This document shows positions 11,758 to 52,777 of a stretch of DNA of 64,000 nucleotides, in pieces. The position numbers and the translations under genes were made by a program. Position 1 is the stretch's first letter, and each line of letters starts with the position of its first letter. The notes beneath the pieces are model-generated. The model saw only the letters and a program-made list of their open reading frames with translations. It was not told where the DNA came from and did no database searches. This DNA comes from Escherichia coli. GTDB lineage: Bacteria; Pseudomonadota; Gammaproteobacteria; Enterobacterales; Enterobacteriaceae. The stretch lies in the NCBI RefSeq assembly GCF_013315695.1, contig NZ_CP054353.1; one strand, written 5' to 3'.

Positions 11758-12115
11758 AGCTCCTCCTTAATGACAGGGTTGCGAAGCCCTGATTCTCTTC
11801 AGGGTGAATATTAAAGATAACACAAACATCGCGTAACGATTTGATAACAACCCAAATTGATAAAAGAGGAGAAACCTTGAGACAAAGCAAACAGCGGGGT
11901 CAGGGATCAGTGAGTAATGATCCAGAGGAGTTCGGCCCAGAAGAGCATCGACAGAGAAAATGCGCCCATCCAGGACCAATATTTCATATTTGTGTTGATC
12001 ATAGGCTACACCCTTAACGGTTATTACTTTGTGTTGAGATAACTCAACCTGTTATTGCTGCGGTGTATTAAAAGCCCTGTGATTCATTAAAAATGGGTAA
12101 TAAGAATGATGATAA

Positions 12116-26771: not shown

Positions 26772-26816
26772 ATGAAAGCAATTTTCGTACTGAAAGGTTG
26801 GTGGCGCACTTCCTGA
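26772..26816 (+). CDS. trpL: trp operon leader peptide
   Basis: 14-codon [17 protein letters not shown] with tandem Trp codons. Confidence 0.95.
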
Positions 26817-26857
26817 AACGGGCAGTGTATTCACCATGCGTAAAGCAATCAGATACC

Positions 26858-26887
26858 CAGCCCGCCTAATTAGCGGGCTTTTTTTTG
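26858..26887 (+). terminator. trp attenuator (3:4 terminator hairpin)
   Basis: cagcccgcctaattagcgggc followed by T8. Confidence 0.9.
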
Positions 26888-33998: not shown

Positions 33999-34083
33999 TT
34001 CACCGTTCATTATTAATATCAGCTGATAAAGATAATTGCATCTGCGGGCCGTATGGCTCGCAGTGATTTCACTGGAGAAAAAT

Positions 34084-34584
34084 ATGAATATGAAGACCAT
34101 TGAAGATGTATTTATTCACCTGCTTTCAGACACCTACAGTGCAGAAAAACAATTAACACGTGCACTGGCAAAACTCGCTAGAGCAACATCAAACGAAAAA
34201 TTAAGTCAGGCTTTTCATGCGCACCTCGAGGAAACACATGGACAGATTGAACGTATTGATCAAGTTGTGGAATCAGAATCGAATCTGAAAATTAAGCGCA
34301 TGAAATGTGTGGCAATGGAAGGTCTTATTGAAGAAGCTAATGAGGTCATCGAAAGTACCGAGAAAAACGAAGTGCGTGATGCCGCACTGATTGCCGCAGC
34401 ACAGAAAGTCGAGCATTATGAGATTGCCAGTTACGGGACATTAGCGACGCTGGCTGAACAATTAGGTTACCGTAAAGCAGCTAAGCTTCTGAAAGAAACT
34501 CTTGAAGAAGAAAAGGCCACCGACATCAAACTAACTGATCTGGCCCTTAATAACGTAAATAAGAAAGCCGAAAATAAAGCCTGA
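34084..34584 (+). CDS. yciF: DUF892/ferritin-like protein YciF
   Basis: 166-aa ORF MNMKTIEDVFIHLLSDTYSAEKQLTRALAKLARATS... Confidence 0.9.
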   Translation: MNMKTIEDVFIHLLSDTYSAEKQLTRALAKLARATSNEKLSQAFHAHLEETHGQIERIDQVVESESNLKIKRMKCVAMEGLIEEANEVIESTEKNEVRDAALIAAAQKVEHYEIASYGTLATLAEQLGYRKAAKLLKETLEEEKATDIKLTDLALNNVNKKAENKA

Positions 34585-34629
34585 AATATGAACTTTAACT
34601 TTTAGTCATTTTATAAAGAGGACATTTTC

Positions 34630-34921
34630 ATGAATCGTATTGAACATTATCATGACTGGTTACGTGACGCCCACGCAATGGAAAAGCAAGCCGAATCTAT
34701 GCTTTAATCCATGGCCAGCCGTATAGATAATTATCCTGAACTACGCGCTCGTATTGAACAACATCTTAGTGAAACCAAAAACCGATTGTTCAACTGGAAA
34801 CTATTCTTGATCGTAATGACATTTCACGTTCAGTCATTAAAGATTCCATGAGTAAAATGGCTGCGCTTGGGCAGTCAATCGGTGGTATATTTCCTTCTGA
34901 TGAAATAGTCAAAGGCTCTAT
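34630..34921 (+). pseudogene. yciE: yciE pseudogene: in-frame TAA at codon 26, 1-bp deletion frameshift, 3' end removed by IS1
   Basis: MNRIEHYHDWLRDAHAMEKQAESML* then YciE-like sequence continues in the same frame (SMASRIDNYPELRARIEQHLSETKN), then shifts frame (…SVIKDSMSKMAALGQSIGGIFPSDEIVKGS) until the IS1 end. Confidence 0.8.
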
Positions 34922-34976
34922 GGTGATGCTGCCAACTTACTGATTTAGTGTATGATGGTGTTTTTGAGGTGCTCCA

Positions 34977-35252
34977 GTGGCTTCTGTTTCTATCAGCTGT
35001 CCCTCCTGTTCAGCTACTGACGGGGTGGTGCGTAACGGCAAAAGCACCGCCGGACATCAGCGCTATCTCTGCTCTCACTGCCGTAAAACATGGCAACTGC
35101 AGTTCACTTACACCGCTTCTCAACCCGGTACGCACCAGAAAATCATTGATATGGCCATGAATGGCGTTGGATGCCGGGCAACAGCCCGCATTATGGGCGT
35201 TGGCCTCAACACGATTTTACGTCACTTAAAAAACTCAGGCCGCAGTCGGTAA
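34977..35252 (+). CDS. insA: IS1 InsA
   Basis: Identical translation to copy 1. Confidence 0.95.
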
Positions 35253-35674
35253 CCTCGCGCATACAGCCGGGCAGTGACGTCATCGTCTGCGCGGAAATGG
35301 ACGAACAGTGGGGCTATGTCGGGGCTAAATCGCGCCAGCGCTGGCTGTTTTACGCGTATGACAGGCTCCGGAAGACGGTTGTTGCGCACGTATTCGGTGA
35401 ACGCACTATGGCGACGCTGGGGCGTCTTATGAGCCTGCTGTCACCCTTTGACGTGGTGATATGGATGACGGATGGCTGGCCGCTGTATGAATCCCGCCTG
35501 AAGGGAAAGCTGCACGTAATCAGCAAGCGATATACGCAGCGAATTGAGCGGCATAACCTGAATCTGAGGCAGCACCTGGCACGGCTGGGACGGAAGTCGC
35601 TGTCGTTCTCAAAATCGGTGGAGCTGCATGACAAAGTCATCGGGCATTATCTGAACATAAAACACTATCAATAA
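35171..35674 (+). CDS. insB: IS1 InsB
   Basis: Identical translation to copy 1. Confidence 0.9.
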
Positions 35675-35888
35675 GTTGGAGTCATTACCGTGATAAACAT
35701 CCGGTTTCTTCCACCATCGCACCGGACAGGCGACTATGAGGGGACAACGCCGCGCTCCGTTAACGCGGTAAACCCCGGTGTGTATCGTTTTTGATTATCC
35801 CCGCACACTCGCGCAGAGGAGTCTCCCTGTCGGGCTGCGGTCTCTGTTAATGAGGGAATACAGCGACGATACGGCGCATCAACAAAAC

Positions 35889-36356
35889 TTATTTCAGGCA
35901 CTGAGTACGGATATATTCCTGCGCCCCTTCCAGTTGCTTCTGCATCGTCATCAGCCGCTCTCTGAGGGTGAAATAATCCCGTGTAACGGTGTCTGCCAGT
36001 TGGGGGCCGGTTGCATTATCCACGCGGGCGGTGCCGGTGGCTTCACGCACGGGACCTGGACAGGTGGCGTTGATACGCAGGCGCTTACGACCAGCGGCAA
36101 CGTCAGCGCGAAGAGTTTCATTTTCAGCTTTCGCATCAGCTAACTCCTTCGTGTATTTTGCATCGAGCGCAGCAACATCACGCTGACGCATCTGCATGTC
36201 AGTAATTGCCGCGTTCGCCAGCTTCAGTTCTCTGACATTTTTGTCGCGCTGGGCTTTGTAGGTAATGGCGTTATCACGGTAATGATTCAGCCCCAGACTA
36301 AGCGCACCACAGGCCACCAGCAGGGCAATGATGACCACGCACAGTACGCGGTTCAT
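35889..36356 (-). CDS. i-spanin Rz
   Basis: 155-aa ORF …[70 protein letters not shown]… closely resembles lambda Rz. Confidence 0.9.
35951..36136 (-). CDS. o-spanin Rz1 lipoprotein (embedded in Rz, +1 frame)
   Basis: 61-aa [25 protein letters not shown]…[32 protein letters not shown]; lipobox and Pro-rich, lambda Rz1-like. Confidence 0.85.
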
Positions 36357-36357
36357 T

Positions 36358-36456
36358 TCACCACCAGCGTATCTGACCGATGAAATAACCGGAGGCCATA
36401 ATCACAAACACCAGCCAGATAAGAATGAACTTCCAGGTGGATAATTTTTCAGCCAT
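36358..36456 (-). CDS. possible 32-aa single-TM peptide between endolysin and Rz
   Basis: [35 protein letters not shown] read from sequence; stop two bases before the Rz start codon; below ORF-track cutoff. Confidence 0.3.
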
Positions 36457-36654
36457 CACTCGAATCTCCCGAATCAGTTTGCTAAAATCAAACACACTTT
36501 CTCCTTTGACTTTTCCGGAGTCAGGAAACACAAAACCCCGCTTGGTGCCAACAAACGGGGTTTTTACTTTTATTCACTTACGTTTCGCCAGTTCGCAGGA
36601 TTTCGTGTTATCCGCCCGCGTGGCCATGCCTTATTTTTCAGCAAAATATTCTGC

Positions 36655-37188
36655 TTATCTGTCGATTCCCCAGCACGCCAGCGCGCTCTCCTGGTCACGA
36701 CGGGATACCTGACCATAACAGTTGTTTGAGCGGATACGGCAGTCTCTGCCACCGTCCTTAATCCACCAGCGAATCGCCTCACACGCTCCCCTGCGATCAC
36801 CTGCATTAATTCGTTTATAAAACGTCGACGGGAAACACTTACCGGGACCAATGTTGTACGGACAGAATGACGCGATCCCCGCTTTCTGGGGTTCACTCAA
36901 TGGCACTCTGATGTTTTTCTCCACCCATGCCAGCGCCTCATCACGCTCAATGGCGTTAACCCGGTCGCATTTTTCCTTCGACAACTTCATGCCCGGAACG
37001 ACAGGTTTGCCATCCACCAGGATGGCACCGCGGCAGATGGTCCAGATACCCGCACCATCACGGTATGCCGTGGTGTGGTTACCTTCCTTTTCATCCAGAA
37101 ACTGGTCGAGAATGTCAGGCGCAGGCGCACCAGCGGCAATCAGCGCCAGAACGGCAGCCGACAGGCCGTATCTGATTTTTGCGTTCAT
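36655..37188 (-). CDS. phage endolysin (GH24 lysozyme with N-terminal signal-anchor-release-like segment), RrrD-like
   Basis: 177-aa ORF MNAKIRYGLSAAVLALIAAGAPAPDILDQFLDEKEGNHTTAYRDGAGIWTICRG… closely resembles cryptic-prophage lysozyme RrrD. Confidence 0.9.
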   Translation of the reverse strand: MNAKIRYGLSAAVLALIAAGAPAPDILDQFLDEKEGNHTTAYRDGAGIWTICRGAILVDGKPVVPGMKLSKEKCDRVNAIERDEALAWVEKNIRVPLSEPQKAGIASFCPYNIGPGKCFPSTFYKRINAGDRRGACEAIRWWIKDGGRDCRIRSNNCYGQVSRRDQESALACWGIDR

Positions 37189-37293
37189 GGATATTTATCA
37201 GGATTTATCGGTTTCTGAGCCCTGGATATGTTTATCAGTTCCAGCCTGTTGCCTCAGGCTGCTAACAGGTCAATACAATCATGAGGATTATTT

Positions 37294-37566
37294 ATGGACA
37301 ATAACACCATTTCTCTACAGGAGTTGCTCGACAGCATTTCCAGGCTTCGGGAAGACGTGAATACCCTTACCGTCGCCTTCTCATATCTGGCATTCTCAAT
37401 TCCAAGGGAACAGATGCAATCAACGCTGGCATCAATCCAGTTTGAATCATGCAATCCCAAATGGTCTCAGGAACAACAAGACTCTTTCAGGCGGCTTGCT
37501 GTATTACTGGATGAAAAATATGCTGGTAAAATTACCATTTCGGCGGACTCTTCAGAGAACCCGTAA
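37294..37566 (+). CDS. hypothetical 90-aa protein, antisense-oriented inside lysis cassette
   Basis: ORF with strong SD (gaggatt, 6 nt before ATG); convergent with orf114, overlapping it by 35 nt. Confidence 0.45.
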   Translation: MDNNTISLQELLDSISRLREDVNTLTVAFSYLAFSIPREQMQSTLASIQFESCNPKWSQEQQDSFRRLAVLLDEKYAGKITISADSSENP

Positions 37567-37876
37567 TTATTCCCGGTAGTTTTCCTCTGTAGGTTATCAA
37601 CACATCCTGCGCCTCTAAAATTACGGGGCGCTTTTCCGGCGACTGCTCATCCCCTTCACATAACCCGGCAGCAACATCCAGGAAGACCTGTCTGATGCTC
37701 CTTCTGGCTGCTGCCTCATAAAACTCCAGCGCGGCACCTTCAACACGGTCCAGCGAGATGTCCAGGTCAAAAATTTCACCGTCAAAGCGTTTTTTGTCCC
37801 GTAACGCTAAAGTTACCGTAACTTTATTCTCAAAATTGCGGATCCCTTTCACAATCAGTTCATAGTTTTGAGTCAT
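37532..37876 (-). CDS. hypothetical 114-aa phage protein between holin and endolysin (position of ydfR-type genes)
   Basis: ORF immediately downstream of holin stop, co-directional with lysis genes. Confidence 0.55.
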   Translation of the reverse strand: MTQNYELIVKGIRNFENKVTVTLALRDKKRFDGEIFDLDISLDRVEGAALEFYEAAARRSIRQVFLDVAAGLCEGDEQSPEKRPVILEAQDVLITYRGKLPGIITGSLKSPPKW

Positions 37877-37880
37877 TGAA

Positions 37881-38096
37881 TTACTCTCCCCGTGCAGCCT
37901 TACGACGGTCCTCTCTGATTTTGAAATACAGGTTAGTCAGATATGTCAGCAGCCCAAACAGCAGACTCCCCAGCACGCCTATTGCCGCCCACTGAGACGG
38001 GGAAACCCTGTCCAGCAACTGCAGGAACCAGTAGCCCGTTCCCACCGCTGACGTGGTGTATGACACACCTGTTGTGATTTTTTCCATCTGGTACAT
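37881..38096 (-). CDS. phage 21-type pinholin S with dual-start motif
   Basis: [71 protein letters not shown] resembles S21 (MKSMDKISTG…); start set at dual-start Met within ORF 37881..38174. Confidence 0.85.
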
Positions 38097-38246
38097 ACCC
38101 CGTCTCCCGTTATCCGGAAGCTGACAACAATAAAAAAAGCCACCAGTTAAGTACTGATGGCTCTGATAACTCATGCAGGCATCTCAGACGACCCACTGAC
38201 ACTACCGGTGAGTTTAACGATACCTTCCATTTGGCTGGCTCACTTT

Positions 38247-40100
38247 TTATGATGATGCCGGTGCATTTATCTCCAGCACCAGACTTTCTATCTCAACGCC
38301 ATACGCTGCATTTTTGGTAATATCCGTCAGCGTCAGCGCATTCAGCCCCAGTGTCAGACTGTCTTTTATGACCTGGAATGCCGGGCCAGCCACTCCATTC
38401 AGTTTCGGAGTAACCGTGGCACTGCCGGCGGTGAACACCAGCTCCAGCGTCTGCCAGTCGTTACTGTAATTCCCGAACTCGCCCAACTTTGTGTTTCCTG
38501 CTTTCTTGTGATGCATCAGATTCAGTTTGCCGTCTGTGGTCTGGGTGAAGAACGACATCAGGAACGGGTTACCAGTCCCGGTCATCGCCACGACGTCAGG
38601 TAACGCTACATCGGTATACAGATAAATTCCCAGACCGAACTGGTTGTTGGTCAGTGCGCCTGACAGTCGAAACTTACAGCTCAGTCTGCCACCCCGTGTC
38701 AGCAGGGAGACTGCGTCATCCACCGGGCGCGTCAGGGACCAGGCTTTATTGCTCTGCTTGGTGATCTTAAATACACCATCTGACAACTGAATTCCGCCAT
38801 TCTTAATGCTCCAGCCCTGCGCAGCAGCGTCTCCGGCTGTCGGCAACAGGGAGATTGTGCGTATGGATGCATCTTCAGACGGCCCCGATGGCGTGTCGCC
38901 GCCGGGCGAGGGTTTGATTTCCGGTGCCTTACCACTAATGAAGGCTAAGGTGCGACCGGCTACGTTCAGAATAGCAGTTGCCATACGATCGGGAATAATG
39001 CCACGACGCGCCCATGAGCTGAAATGCGTCGGGCGATTTGATGATACCCAGTTTTTGTTCGTTCGGGATGCCGAACCGTAATAACCAGACCCGGCAATAT
39101 CAGGATCTTCTGACGGGTTGTTTGTCGGTGTATTAACTCCGCTACCATCGGTCATAAAGGGAACAAAATAAATCTGCTGGGATTCTTTACCTTTATATGC
39201 ACCATATACCACTTCATATTGCGTACCGTGTTCTTGTTTCCACGCGTATGTCGTGTCGCCACAAATCCAGGGGACTGATGCCGGACTTCCACCGTGACAC
39301 TGCGCCGCCAGCCCGGCAAGGTCAGCACGGAACTGCTGTACCATTGCAAGAAATGCTGCTGGCTGCTGGGCGTAACTGGCATTCGTCATATCGAATTCCC
39401 CCTGCATCCAGCATATCGCCAGCAAAACGTTTTTCGGGTTTTTCTGCAATGCTGCCTTCGTGCGGAAAAGCAGATCCTGATATAACGGCTTACCCACTCC
39501 CCAGCGAGCCGAATCCTGACTGGCTCCCGTGGACTCGCTGAATGTCCCCTCCGTGCCCTGGGTGAATGCCGAACCACCACGACAGCATGGTACCAGCAGG
39601 ATCCCCGCATTATTAGGGATATACGGAAGCAGTTTTTTGGCAATATGTAAGCCCTGTCCGACACAGCCGTACTGCCCTTTGCTCAGGTCAGCCCGGGGAT
39701 GGTTAATCGTACTCATATCCTGAACATCATGCAGACAATGGTCAGCAGGAATGATGTCGTTAAATACGCATACTTCACCACCGGGAGTCACTGTGTTACG
39801 ACGGGCCAGTTGCTTAATGCGCGGATGGGGCGCATCGTATGAATCCGGAAGCGGAAGCCCTTCACCGTAAGCCATGGCATTGGATTGCCCGGCCAGTACG
39901 ATGACGTAGTACCACTCCGGCTCAGTTGCACCACTGACGACCACATCACCTTCTGCTGCAATCGCCTGCATCAGGGTATAAGGGGTTATGGCCACCGGAC
40001 TACCAAACGGCTGCCAGCCCTCCTTCAGTTTTTGTGTCAGTCGTTTCGCAAGGTCTGACGGCGATGCCGCCCTGACCACGTCATAGTGTTTAAATGCCAT
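38247..40100 (-). CDS. prophage sialate O-acetylesterase NanS-p (N-terminal DUF1737-like, SASA/SGNH esterase domain)
   Basis: 617-aa ORF; N-terminus MAFKHYDVVRAASPSDLAKRL…; VIVLAGQSNAMAYGEG esterase motif; located between tRNAs and holin as in Stx-type phages. Confidence 0.8.
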   Translation of the reverse strand: MAFKHYDVVRAASPSDLAKRLTQKLKEGWQPFGSPVAITPYTLMQAIAAEGDVVVSGATEPEWYYVIVLAGQSNAMAYGEGLPLPDSYDAPHPRIKQLARRNTVTPGGEVCVFNDIIPADHCLHDVQDMSTINHPRADLSKGQYGCVGQGLHIAKKLLPYIPNNAGILLVPCCRGGSAFTQGTEGTFSESTGASQDSARWGVGKPLYQDLLFRTKAALQKNPKNVLLAICWMQGEFDMTNASYAQQPAAFLAMVQQFRADLAGLAAQCHGGSPASVPWICGDTTYAWKQEHGTQYEVVYGAYKGKESQQIYFVPFMTDGSGVNTPTNNPSEDPDIAGSGYYGSASRTNKNWVSSNRPTHFSSWARRGIIPDRMATAILNVAGRTLAFISGKAPEIKPSPGGDTPSGPSEDASIRTISLLPTAGDAAAQGWSIKNGGIQLSDGVFKITKQSNKAWSLTRPVDDAVSLLTRGGRLSCKFRLSGALTNNQFGLGIYLYTDVALPDVVAMTGTGNPFLMSFFTQTTDGKLNLMHHKKAGNTKLGEFGNYSNDWQTLELVFTAGSATVTPKLNGVAGPAFQVIKDSLTLGLNALTLTDITKNAAYGVEIESLVLEINAPASS

Positions 40101-40330
40101 GAATCCTCCCGGGCGGGATAATGTTGTGAGTCAGATAAGGAGCAGGCTGAAGTCCGGAAGTTACAGGACAATGGCAGAAGGGAGACTACAGCCCGCAATT
40201 CGAAAAAGACCGCGCAGTTGCGCAGAGTGATTACTATGGGGTATTATTCGCCAGCTGAAATATTACTTCACGTTTTATTGTTTATTCCTTGCCGCCCGCG
40301 TCTCCCAGCGCGGGCTTTTTTTGTCCATAA

Positions 40331-40568
40331 GAAAGCCCCTCCGGAGAGGGGCTAAAGCCGCGTATCTGTATCATCATGCACATGGTGCCGGGTGCCTCCC
40401 GGTGAGTTCAGCCCGGTGCCACTAAACCCGCGTCATTCTCGTTTTGATAATCAGAGATTATACCGTCACCAGTCGCCCCTCCGCTCAGGGGGATTCACCA
40501 TGCGAAATTTTTTTAACAAATGCCCAGTCTGACAGGCAACTGTCAACTTACTGAATTGTGAGCAACAT
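40331..40568. repeat. hairpin-rich noncoding repeat unit, copy A
   Basis: Shares blocks aaagcccctccggagaggggct, catggtgccgggtgcctcccggtga, cccctccgc.cagggggattcaccatgc, ttttaacaaa, ctgaattgtgag with copy B. Confidence 0.7.
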
Positions 40569-40815
40569 AGCATTTAACGGGGAACCTGTTTTCTGCAGTA
40601 AAAAGGCCCACCGGAGCGGATGGGCCTGGAAGGATAGCGGTCATGTGATGCCGGTTTCCCGGTAACTCAGCACCGGTATCTGAGTCAACGTTTTCTCTAC
40701 TGGGTCATTTCCGATACGCCCTGCCTGCTGACAGGCTTTCATCACATCTGAAAATATAGCACCCTGACTGATACTGTAGTACCTAAGGTTCCAGAAACTG
40801 TGATGTATCCGGCAC

Positions 40816-41036
40816 AGAAAAGCCCCTCCGGAGAGGGGCTGGAGAGTGGCGCTATGTGCCATTGCATGGTGCCGGGTGCCTCCCGGTGAATTCAGTACCA
40901 GCACCTGAATCCGCGATTATCCCATATACCTACTCGCTGATTGCCCCTCCGCACAGGGGGATTCACCATGCCAGTTTCTTTTAACAAACTCCCCGCAAAC
41001 CAGACAACAGTCAACCGCCTGAATTGTGAGACATTT
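40816..41036. repeat. hairpin-rich noncoding repeat unit, copy B
   Basis: Degenerate direct repeat of copy A (~485 bp period); a third partial copy of the ccgg-hairpin block lies at ~40690..40740. Confidence 0.7.
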
Positions 41037-41074
41037 AAAAAAAGCCCGCAAAAGCGAGCCAGGGAAAATAAGTG

Positions 41075-41151
41075 TGGCGCGTTGTACTGGATTCGAACCA
41101 GTGACCGATTGCTTAGAAGGCAATTGCTCTGTCCGGCTGAGCTAACAACGC
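41075..41151 (-). tRNA. tRNA-Arg (anticodon UCU)
   Basis: Manual fold: acceptor GCGTTGT/ACAACGC, D-arm GCTC..GAGC, anticodon stem ATTGC/GCAAT with loop CTTCTAA, T-arm ACTGG TTCGAAT CCAGT, CCA end. Confidence 0.9.
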
Positions 41152-41164
41152 AGGATACAGATAA

Positions 41165-41241
41165 TGGACCGCCTTCGGGGACCCGAACTCCGCGCAACCA
41201 GCTTCGAAAGCTGGCGCTCTTTCCTGATGAGCTAATGGCGG
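41165..41241 (-). tRNA. tRNA-Arg-like (anticodon UCG), possibly degenerate
   Basis: Perfect anticodon stem CCAGC/GCTGG with loop TTTCGAA, but one mismatch each in acceptor and T stems and T-loop TTCGGGT lacks the conserved A58. Confidence 0.5.
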
Positions 41242-41248
41242 TATGTGA

Positions 41249-41324
41249 TGGTGGCCCTTGCTGGATTTGAACCAGCGACCTGGCGATTATGAGTCGCTCG
41301 CTCTCACCACTGAGCTAAAGGGCC
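41249..41324 (-). tRNA. tRNA-Ile2/Met type (anticodon CAU), ileX/ileZ-like
   Basis: GGCCCTTTAGCTCAGTGGTGAGAGCGAGCGACTCATAATCGCCAGGTCGCTGGTTCAAATCCAGCAAGGGCCACCA; near-identical to remembered E. coli tRNA-Ile2 (k2CAU). Confidence 0.85.
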
Positions 41325-42573: not shown

Positions 42574-42858
42574 TCAGGACTGAAGGCGTCTGTAACAACC
42601 GAACTGATAGTCTGCCAGACCCGCCATAACCAGCTGGGTCAGTATTAACTGGCAGCGTTCGCGTGAAAGGTAAGTATTCTGCGCTATCTCCCCGACTGTC
42701 GCCGGTTCGGTAACGCTTAATTCATTAAACACCACTCTGGCGGTTTCTGTCATATCCTGCTGTTTTAGCATGTCTTTTTCCTTTTTCCGGTTAACGTGAC
42801 ATACCAATAACTCTTGTCGAAAAAGCCAGCAAGCTGAAAGACCCGTATTCGCAACCAC
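42574..42858 (-). CDS. hypothetical small phage protein (possible HTH)
   Basis: ORF between the Q-like gene/terminator and the methyltransferase; start may be an internal Met (MLKQQDMTETAR…). Confidence 0.4.
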   Translation of the reverse strand: MVANTGLSACWLFRQELLVCHVNRKKEKDMLKQQDMTETARVVFNELSVTEPATVGEIAQNTYLSRERCQLILTQLVMAGLADYQFGCYRRLQS

Positions 42859-42896
42859 CAGCGTGTTTACTGTACTGACGCGATTTTGGGCATAAA

Positions 42897-42930
42897 AAAA
42901 AACCGCCTGACGGCAGTTTTTTTTCTTACT
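42897..42930 (-). terminator. candidate tR'-like terminator downstream of Q-like gene
   Basis: A-run, short GC hairpin (ccgcctgacggcag), T-run; reads as terminator on both strands. Confidence 0.45.
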
Positions 42931-42985
42931 TTGCCATCGCGTACAAAATCGGCAAAATATCAGATTTATATGAAACGTACGCTAT

Positions 42986-45534: not shown

Positions 45535-45690
45535 TTACTCCTCAGGTTCGTAAGCTGTGAAGACAGCGACCTCCGTCTGGCCGGTTCGGAGTCGTACCTC
45601 GCAGAGGTCTTTCCTCGTTACCAGTGCCGTCACTATGACGGTTAAACAGATGACGATCAGGGCGATTAACATCGCCTTTTGCTGCTTCAT
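45535..45690 (-). CDS. hok: Hok/Gef-family type I toxin (HokD/RelF-like)
   Basis: MKQQKAMLIALIVICLTVIVTALVTRKDLCEVRLRTGQTEVAVFTAYEPEE, essentially the remembered HokD sequence; extended upstream frame (to 45747) corresponds to mok-like leader. Confidence 0.9.
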   Translation of the reverse strand: MKQQKAMLIALIVICLTVIVTALVTRKDLCEVRLRTGQTEVAVFTAYEPEE

Positions 45691-45927
45691 AGCCTGCTTC
45701 CCCTTGCCTTTCGGCACGTAAGAGGCTAACCTACATTTGTGAGACATAGATTGGGCCTCAGATTAATGTTAAGCGTCTTGCAGGACGCGAAATGTTAACT
45801 GGGGCTTTTCTCTATCTGCCTTTCAGTGTTCATGCCTGAGACAGATAGCCTCAAGCACCCGCAGCCATTCTACTTAACTCACGTCACCTCGCCAATATGA
45901 AATCAATCAGAAAGGTGATCCATAAAA

Positions 45928-52056: not shown

Positions 52057-52588
52057 GGGTCAGGTGGAGTGCGTGCGCCGGACACGGGTGAGCATCCGGC
52101 ACTGACAGCTTACTGAAAGGATATGTCCCTGAAAAGTCAGGGCATAACGCGAAAGCGCACGGCGAAATTGGTCTCTCTGTACGGTGTCGTTAAATTTAGT
52201 TCGACCGTGCGCTTCCGGTTGTGGCACTCCGCGAAATGGCGCGGCGGTAAGTATGGCTGGGGTTTCCTCCATTGCTCCAGAAAATGCACCGGGTTGTCAG
52301 GTTGACCATACGCTTAAGTGACAACCCCGCTACAACGCCCTCTGTTATCAATTTTCTGGTGACATTTGGCGGTATCAGTTTTACTCCGTGACTGCTCTGC
52401 CGCCCTTTTTAAAGTGAATTTTGTGATGCGGTGAATGCGGCTATGCGCACGCGGAACAGTTAAAGCAGTAAGGCGGTATTTTACGGGCGTAACGAGCATC
52501 AACTAACCCGGCGTTAATTGTTAACTGGTTAACGTCACCTGGAGGCACCAGGCACTGCATCACAAAATTCATTGTTGAGGACGCGATA

Positions 52589-52777
52589 ATGGAAACGTTA
52601 TTACCAAACGTTAATACGTCTGAAGGTTGTTTTGATATTGGTGTTCTGCTCAGTAACCGGGAGTTTACTGAAGATGCCATTAATATGAGGAAATATGAGC
52701 CTTATCTGCTCAATGATAATTCCATACTTTCCCGAATTGCTCTTCTTGAACTTGGTATTTTCGGAGAACGTCAATGA
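52589..52777 (+). CDS. hypothetical small protein
   Basis: 62-aa ORF with RBS; stop overlaps next start (ATGA). Confidence 0.45.
   Translation: METLLPNVNTSEGCFDIGVLLSNREFTEDAINMRKYEPYLLNDNSILSRIALLELGIFGERQ

Follow-up and report, generated by a model that had tools for sequence, protein, structure and literature searches.

A probable cluster of four small RNA genes at the Shiga toxin position of a lambdoid prophage in Escherichia coli

The kilobase between the tRNA genes and nanS-p

The subject of this report is a kilobase (positions 40101-41074) of a 64,000-nt stretch of Escherichia coli DNA (contig NZ_CP054353.1 of assembly GCF_013315695.1; the whole stretch is referred to as the window), in which three minus-strand units, A, M and B, and one plus-strand unit, P, can be recognised as candidate genes for small regulatory RNAs (sRNAs). 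The kilobase is bounded by the gene for a 617-aa esterase of the SASA/NanS-p type (nanS-p) and by three tRNA genes (Table 1). A DNA methylase gene and the gene for the antiterminator Q are found upstream on the minus strand, and a holin gene, a lysozyme gene and a frameshifted lysis gene downstream. The resulting gene order (Q, methylase, tRNAs, sRNAs, esterase, holin, lysozyme) therefore assigns the kilobase to the late region of a lambdoid prophage transcribed on the minus strand, which is the direction in which A, M and B read. The same order is present in the Shiga toxin 2 (Stx2) phage ASU11 and in PP2 of enteropathogenic E. coli (EPEC).

An earlier note on this DNA had described the kilobase as poor in open reading frames (ORFs) and rich in repeats and hairpins, and all of these features are present. 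The ORF list holds no credible ORF in 40101-41074: frames lying wholly within it reach at most 46 aa, and those of 87-109 aa extend into a tRNA gene or span the repeat units. Terminator-like sites number 10, compared to 1.8 +/- 1.4 in shuffled sequences. The two repeats of about 230 bp, placed about 485 bp apart in the note, correspond to units A and B, which are 67.8% identical over about 235 nt (shuffled controls reach 50% on average and 53% at most); within them, an 88-nt direct repeat (40475-40562 and 40943-41030) is 80% identical at a spacing of 468, and a 31-nt direct repeat (40381-40411 and 40865-40895) is 97% identical at a spacing of 484. The third copy reported in the note is real but not partial, as its ccgg hairpin block, in the region of 40641-40663, is part of a full third unit, M, to which identity falls to 55%. 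The hairpin gcccctccggagaggggc occurs in two copies (40335-40352 and 40822-40839). The identical 1.4-kb stretch is present in 339 of 5426 complete E. coli genomes, CE10 and avian pathogenic E. coli O18 among them, and in an identical genome the only RefSeq feature in the kilobase is a partial pseudo 'hypothetical protein'. This call (40856-40981, plus strand, in the annotation of identical genomes) lies inside unit A and is very likely spurious; small 'hypothetical proteins' are annotated over these sRNAs in phage records too.

Units A and B belong to the STnc100 family. In the covariance-model scan against Rfam that had been proposed with the earlier note, membership in RF02076 required at least the curated gathering score, 47 bits, and both units exceed it over the full length of the model (positions 1-206): A at 41000..40810 with 136.3 bits (E 9e-31) and B at 40532..40323 with 165.4 bits (E 3e-38). 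The predicted promoter of A consists of a -35 box TTGTCT (41007..41002), an 18-nt spacer ending in TGT and a -10 box TAAAAG (40983..40978). Transcription is predicted to start at about 40971, the 5' core spans 40973..40862, and a terminator stem at 40840..40821 is followed by UUUUCUGU. Unit B has a predicted promoter with TTGCCT at 40539..40534 and TGT plus TAAAAA at 40518..40510, a core at 40505..40378 and a terminator stem at 40353..40334 followed by UUUCUUAU. Folding of the repeat units, likewise proposed earlier, returns the family fold as the minimum free energy (MFE) structure of A as well as of M. The quantitative PCR primers used for STnc100 in PMC12370729 match unit A perfectly.

Unit M is, as far as its sequence tells, a complete and divergent third gene rather than a fragment. 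A local Rfam search matches 40771..40598 to STnc100 over model positions 1-206 with 30.1 bits (E 4.6e-5), below the gathering score of 47 bits, and M is therefore filed as a divergent relative and not as a formal Rfam member. It carries an extended -10 box (TGcTATATT, 40761..40753) and a core at 40749..40641 with the helices P1 (AUGUGAUG/CAUCACAU), P2 (GCCUG/CAGGC), P4 (GACUCAG/CUGAGUU) and P5 (CCGG-GAAA-CCGG), of which P1 is a compensated version of GCAUGGUG/CACCAUGC. The 3' part consists of a 16-nt single-stranded C/U-rich tail and a terminator stem (40627..40604) followed by U5. When folded from the predicted start, M adopts the architecture that defines the structural family, with P1 enclosing P2, P4 and P5, and then the tail and an intrinsic terminator. 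It is present in 672 of 5426 complete E. coli genomes (about 12%), almost never annotated, as two variants that are about 91% identical and whose differences in P2 and in the terminator are compensatory, so that pairing is kept.

On the opposite strand, P is convergent with unit B, and the terminators of the two genes stand back to back. A promoter scan finds a promoter-like sigma-70 site (ATGCCA, 17 nt, GATAAT) at 40094-40122, the -35 box of which overlaps the nanS-p start codon; the site fits a start near 40130-40141, and by orthology the RNA would extend from 40141 to 40322. A predicted seed CCUUGCC at about 40287-40293 is followed at 40294-40322 by the terminator GCCCGCGUCUCCCAGCGCGGGC and U7, which is the hairpin gcccgcgtctcccagcgcgggc followed by T7 of the earlier note. 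The plus strand of 40101-40330 is 96% identical over 230 columns to the region of the EPEC E2348/69 sRNA 'E2348C_1409.E2348C_1408.IGR'; the stretch CCUUGCCGCCCGCG and the seed are identical in both, and in both loci an esterase-like gene of 617 aa diverges from the sRNA at the same distance. The EPEC RNA is 182 nt long, was detected by the sequencing of ligated interacting RNAs (RIL-seq), pairs through its seed with GGCAAGG motifs of cfa, dppA, tir and other mRNAs, and is equated by its authors with EcOnc08/21/42 of enterohaemorrhagic E. coli (EHEC). The Northern probe for EcOnc08/21/42 matches 40218-40248 at 28 of 31 bases. Thus, P agrees with EcOnc08/21/42 in whole-RNA identity, seed box, terminator and synteny. 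No Rfam family matches P, and a 251-nt search returns neither AsxR nor AgvB even at E<=10. An anti-sRNA of the AsxR/AgvB type (RF02703/RF02702), recognisable by a conserved 3' region of about 42 nt (containing GUAUCUCAUGC and GCCCGAACCCACUCGGGCUUUU) or by a covariance-model match, was considered for P and rejected, as P has neither a covariance-model nor a sequence match; the AsxR and EcOnc03 sequences give merely 11-nt chance matches elsewhere in the window. A minus-strand terminator-like hairpin (CUGCGCAACUGCGCGG, then UCUUUUU) is present at 40210-40225, antisense to P and about 110 nt upstream of the nanS-p start, and could act as an attenuator of read-through from unit B into nanS-p.

Table 1. 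Positions of the candidate sRNA genes and associated features in the window.
Feature	Position	Strand	Basis
Unit A, STnc100-family sRNA gene (predicted)	40810..41007	minus	Rfam RF02076
Unit M, divergent STnc100-family sRNA gene (predicted)	40598..40761	minus	sub-threshold Rfam match, core model R1, MFE fold
Unit B, STnc100-family sRNA gene (predicted)	40323..40539	minus	Rfam RF02076
P, sRNA gene on the strand opposite to late transcription and the nanS-p leader (predicted)	40094..40322	plus	EPEC orthology, promoter scan
Intrinsic terminator GGCUCGCUUUUGCGGGCU followed by U7, directly 3' of the tRNA cluster	41036..41060	minus	terminator scan
NanS-p-type SASA carbohydrate esterase gene, 617 aa	38247..40100	minus	ORF list; RefSeq annotation of identical locus; same gene order in ASU11
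Phage tRNA cluster: Ile/Met-CAU, Arg-UCG, Arg-UCU	41075..41324	minus	ARAGORN, Rfam, RefSeq annotation of identical CE10 locus
STnc100-like 5' core in the early-left operon of the same prophage	52424..52562	plus	R1, 41.4 bits, E 2e-8; Rfam STnc100, 31.1 bits, E 4e-5

Some features of the surrounding prophage can be added. The tRNA cluster is of the ileZ-argN-argO type of Stx phages; its CAU tRNA (41249-41324, minus strand) is called Met by ARAGORN and tRNA-Ile by RefSeq in the identical locus, and probably represents the ileZ type of Stx phages, which is modified with lysidine. Just downstream of Q, at 42850-42980, a bidirectional terminator-like hairpin (A8, stem, T6-8) gives weak sub-threshold Rfam matches to STnc370 (E 0.007) and isrK (E 0.86), and is probably the short PR'-tR' transcript, the counterpart of lambda 6S RNA or StxS. 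The prophage looks cryptic (about 34000-38250), as the identical CE10 locus has the frameshifted lysis gene and an IS3-family transposase soon after it, and the host Trp leader at 26793-26886 leaves no room for the structural genes of the prophage. Rfam matches above threshold are also given by the sok antitoxin RNA (45685-45860, minus strand, 120 bits), beside a hokD-type toxin gene, and by STnc180 (11863-12075, minus strand, 183 bits).

A conserved RNA core and its relative upstream of dicB

Units A, M and B share an architecture in which a closing helix, P1, surrounds P2, a variable P3, P4 and P5, and is followed by a variable 3' tail and a terminator. The conservation of this fold was evaluated with a core model, R1, built from 14 diverse units of viral contigs. 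M and PasD, a further sRNA of this kind from EPEC, were left out of the model because a MAFFT alignment that included them was shifted in register and misplaced P2 and P5; they were then aligned by R1. R1 scores unit A at 118 bits, unit B at 123 bits and M at 33.5 bits (E 2e-6). Applied to the window plus 99 loci (886 kb), it returns 130 matches, 54 of them distinct. Over these 54 sequences, standard pairs fill 97.4% of the cells and two-sided changes affect 16 of the 26 pairs, with a covariation score of 0.253; no shuffle out of 500 attains such values. When the 3' partners are slid by 1-3 columns, at most 4 pairs show two-sided changes and pairing drops to 32-48%. A pseudoknot between loops L2 (UGUGCGG) and L5 (AGGCA) was considered and rejected, since at most 3 bp are possible and the loops are, as judged by eye, essentially invariant. 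Other Rfam families match the cores or P only through their terminators and below threshold (OmrA-B at 25 bits, for example).

The upstream regions are conserved as well. In 32 distinct upstream sequences of family members, P1 is preceded at a fixed distance by TTGnCT, an 18-nt spacer with TGn at its end, and TAAAAR; variants occur in PasD-type units (TTGACT, 17-18 nt, TAAAAA) and in M (TGcTATATT). The published 5' end of PasD2, determined by RNA-seq, is the first base of P1, which agrees with a function of these boxes as extended -10 promoters. The minus-strand promoters of A, M and B are thus predicted to be of the sigma-70 type; a simple sigma-70 scan of the minus strand finds no promoters there, and the boxes, with their weak -35 and extended -10 elements, are visible only through family conservation. 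The terminator scan, in turn, gives each sRNA unit a terminator of its own. The same core occurs with at least three unrelated modules of 3' tail and terminator (PasD-like tails, for instance, are found on STnc100 cores), which points to recombination where core and tail meet. The family is also mosaic in viral contigs (e.g., L057 11447-11650 and L046 1897-2100), and PasD-like tails are U-rich.

A relative of the core lies in the early-left operon of the same prophage (Table 1). DicF (RF00039) is found at 52354-52405 with 77 bits, at most 19 nt upstream of this core, and a homologue of dicB, a cell-division inhibitor gene, follows at 52589-52777. The spacer between dicF and dicB in the Qin prophage of K-12 MG1655 holds the same element (NC_000913.3, about 1649453-1649582; 43 bits, E 6e-9 to 6e-10), as do four viral contigs, three of which have a DicF motif just upstream. 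Compensated changes are present in P1, P4 and P5 of the dicB-leader core, GUGAAU, UCACC and the AGGCA loop are retained, P1 is extended to 15 bp, and a terminator of its own is absent. GTGACT-16-TAAAGT, which may be a sigma-70 site, overlaps the terminator of DicF. In a keyword search, a recent dicBF study, with mapping that lay upstream of dicF, mentions neither such an element nor an internal promoter. Within the literature searched, the occurrence of the core in the dicB leader seems not to have been described before, and it suggests that the core can act in cis too.

It is tempting to go one step further, although we hold this only as a tentative possibility, and to consider the STnc100/PasD 5' core as an autonomous RNA module for protein binding, for processing or stability, or for translation control. 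Such a module might be used as an sRNA body with interchangeable seed and terminator tails in the late 'moron' slot and, after the DicF terminator, as the leader of dicB, including in K-12 Qin; M might then represent a third lineage, in which the scaffold is kept and the loops are swapped for GNRA-type tetraloops. On a minimal reading, the 5' core would be a 5'-terminal helix that shields the RNA from 5'-end-dependent decay. The presence of the core in the dicF-dicB leader of K-12 makes the function of a widespread RNA domain testable in a standard laboratory strain.

The Shiga toxin slot and the reading of the array

The earlier note had placed the kilobase in the slot taken by stxAB in Stx phages, and this placement holds. 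In ASU11 the order is tRNAs, stxA, stxB, about 510 bp and nanS-p. The 510-bp spacer between stxB and nanS-p is 91.7% identical to 40561..40101, that is, to unit B and P, and the spacer between tRNA and stxA shares 84% identity with the 45 nt at 41077..41033, which follow the last tRNA. Searches of the window with ASU11 stx2AB by blastn (word size 7) and tblastx recover nothing but this 45-nt flank. As the flanks are shared and stx2AB is unmatched, units A and M (41033..40562) therefore occupy the exact place of the stx cassette, and B and P lie downstream of stxB in Stx2 phages too. We infer that sRNA units are common, default occupants of this slot and that stxAB is an alternative cargo, the precise insertion point of which would lie after the post-tRNA terminator and before the first sRNA unit. 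A decayed toxin locus, as the note had also entertained, would account for the shared position between the tRNAs and nanS-p, but it does not survive the same comparison: stx2A and stx2B leave no similarity by either search, only the two flanks of the cassette are shared with ASU11, and the DNA between them consists of two complete sRNA units, so that the chance of this origin is minute. An assembly duplication, the other way in which the repeats might have been dismissed, has nothing to recommend it but the fact that they are repeats. The copies are just 68% identical between A and B and 55% to M, and 339 complete genomes, independent of one another, and many viral contigs carry the identical array, which makes an artefact practically inconceivable.

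We consider it likely that four genes for small regulatory RNAs (A, M, B and P), each transcribed independently of the others, are clustered in the kilobase, with promoters of their own that would act in the lysogen. The small RNA gene array that was among the suggestions of the earlier note is thus the one that the data favour, with A and B as STnc100 members, M as a divergent one and the T7 hairpin as the end of P. Within this cryptic lambdoid prophage, the cluster would fill the 'moron' slot that follows Q, PR' and the tRNAs and precedes nanS-p and the lysis genes. By analogy with their homologues, for which discrete Hfq-associated RNA is known (PMC5331693, PMC4104026, PMC8550237), the RNAs may be transcribed in the lysogen and associate with Hfq, and they would most likely act in trans, with the variable 3' regions pairing with mRNAs of host and prophage. 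As suggested by its EPEC orthologue, P may pair via its CCUUGCC box with GGCAAGG motifs such as those of the cfa and dppA leaders in EPEC, and it would also be complementary to the late transcript in the nanS-p leader. On induction, Q-modified RNA polymerase would read through the entire cluster.

Several points weigh against this reading. Expression evidence is confined to homologues, with this prophage and the M-type units outside it, and STnc100 RNAs have no established target, phenotype or function. The U tracts at the ends of A and B (UUUUCUGU, UUUCUUAU) are short and interrupted, which makes for weak terminators and poor Hfq 3' sites, so that longer read-through products are likely; EcOnc27, an EHEC relative, runs at about 235/247 nt on Northern blots. 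The covariation alignment was fitted to the model, which favours structure, even if the margin is large. Finally, the same core is found as an mRNA leader upstream of dicB and may have a cis role. Some of these observations can be turned into a different account, in which the cores are not genes for trans-acting sRNAs but cis-acting elements of long phage transcripts that serve in processing, stability, anti-termination or translation control of the late mRNA, the nanS-p leader and dicB. The dicF-dicB leader core is co-oriented with its operon and has no terminator of its own, the late-region units are all co-oriented with late transcription, and the terminators of A and B are weak. Nevertheless, uninduced lysogens accumulate the homologues as discrete, Hfq-bound RNAs about 170-250 nt long, each unit has conserved promoter-like boxes as well as a terminator, and PasD has RIL-seq targets in trans, so that we regard a purely cis-acting array as unlikely. 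The terminators for late transcription invoked in the earlier note are borne out only in part, since each sRNA gene and the tRNA cluster do have a terminator, but the structures are mainly RNA bodies and not cis regulators.

Two further alternatives concern the units themselves. They may code for short leaderless peptides (MVNPP...), with translation beginning at the conserved AUG of GCAUGGUGAAUCC, which lies 2 nt from the predicted transcript start; the prefix MVNPP(V/E)RRG recurs, and ribosome footprints are found on some of the STnc100 copies of EDL933. The frames that open at this AUG, however, may have a single codon or over 40, their C-termini are unrelated, and in M and the dicB-leader lineages they end after 1-2 codons. 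A Shine-Dalgarno sequence is absent, and substitutions track base-pairing rather than codons; a coding function is accordingly very improbable. With regard to M, its score below the Rfam threshold and the loss of conserved family loops (AGGCA to GAAA in L5 and UGUGCGG to UCAG in L2) may indicate a decaying STnc100 pseudogene copy instead of a working gene. Against this stand the preservation of all four modelled helices through compensated changes, a -10 box (TGcTATATT) and a terminator (U5) that are the best of the array, and the persistence of M in 672 genomes as two variants whose differences leave P2 and the terminator paired. We therefore find decay the less convincing account of M, though one to which some weight is still due.

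Comparison with known systems

The STnc100 family has been met repeatedly in pathogenic E. coli. EDL933 has 11 transcribed STnc100 copies, one of them confirmed by Northern blot (PMC5331693), and STnc100 RNA has been detected in outer-membrane vesicles (PMC12370729). EcOnc27, which is the same as sRNA103, lies downstream of stx2B, overlaps an STnc100 prediction and binds Hfq (PMC12711010; PMC7873438). Units A and B share with the family the five-helix 5' core, the 3' terminator and the late-region position beside nanS-p, and unit B is the orthologue of the STnc100 copy that follows stxB in Stx2 phages. The differences are that three family units stand here in tandem instead of one, and that the 3' tails of A and B are distinct from that of EcOnc27, the EcOnc27 probe having no match in the window.

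A second point of comparison is PasD, for which a 2026 preprint by Zhu, Shabalina and Storz shows common ancestry with STnc100, both being encoded beside sialate esterase genes (bioRxiv 10.64898/2026.05.13.724894). The location expected for the STnc100/PasD family, between Q/PR' and the lysis genes and beside a sialate esterase gene, is the one found for the kilobase. PasD1 and PasD2 of EPEC E2348/69 (EcOnc13 type) have the same promoter box, the core helices P1 and P2 and the position upstream of the sialate esterase, and with 37 bits in the core model they score in the same range as M. In contrast to the units described here, PasD has no hairpin P5; its long, U-rich tail contains the seed CCUUGUGAG, and its terminator has U8. 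Units A, M and B align with it only in the promoter box and the 5' part of the core and do not have the tail seed CCUUGUGAG, and the PasD probe has no match in the window. PasA likewise gives no blastn match in the window, and the PasA, PasB and PasC probes give only chance 10-11-mers.

The dicBF operon of Qin offers a further comparison, since the window also has a dicF-dicB pair with an STnc100-like core in the spacer; there the core is an internal mRNA leader, unlike the late-region sRNA units. As for P, the EcOnc08/21/42 sRNAs of EHEC Sakai (Sp4/Sp15) resemble it in sequence (96%), position, seed box and terminator, with point differences only, and the length of their transcript is uncertain (182 nt by EPEC RNA-seq compared to about 271 nt by Sakai Northern blot). 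A similar situation is known from AsxR and AgvB, which are part of the convergent 'dyads' of Tree et al. (2014): Hfq-binding sRNA pairs of this kind are found 3' of PR' in eight Sakai prophages (PMC4104026), and one of them, downstream of stx2B, is formed by EcOnc27 and AsxR (PMC4104026; review PMC7873438). P is likewise an antisense partner that converges on an STnc100-type sRNA 3' of PR', although it is three times longer than AsxR/AgvB and has no sequence or covariance-model similarity to them; moreover, AsxR and AgvB sponge sRNAs, whereas the EPEC orthologue of P pairs with mRNAs. B and P are thus a convergent sRNA pair of the type described by Tree et al. (2014), downstream of the late promoter PR'.

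All in all, a common and seemingly empty E. coli kilobase merits annotation as four sRNA genes, of which M, carried by about 12% of complete genomes, is missed at the Rfam threshold and P has no Rfam family. Such annotation helps to read the mosaics of toxin phages and the variants downstream of stx2 that have lately been linked to clinical outcome (PMC12711010). Compared with the known systems, the locus is an instance of an arrangement already described, plus one new divergent member, M.

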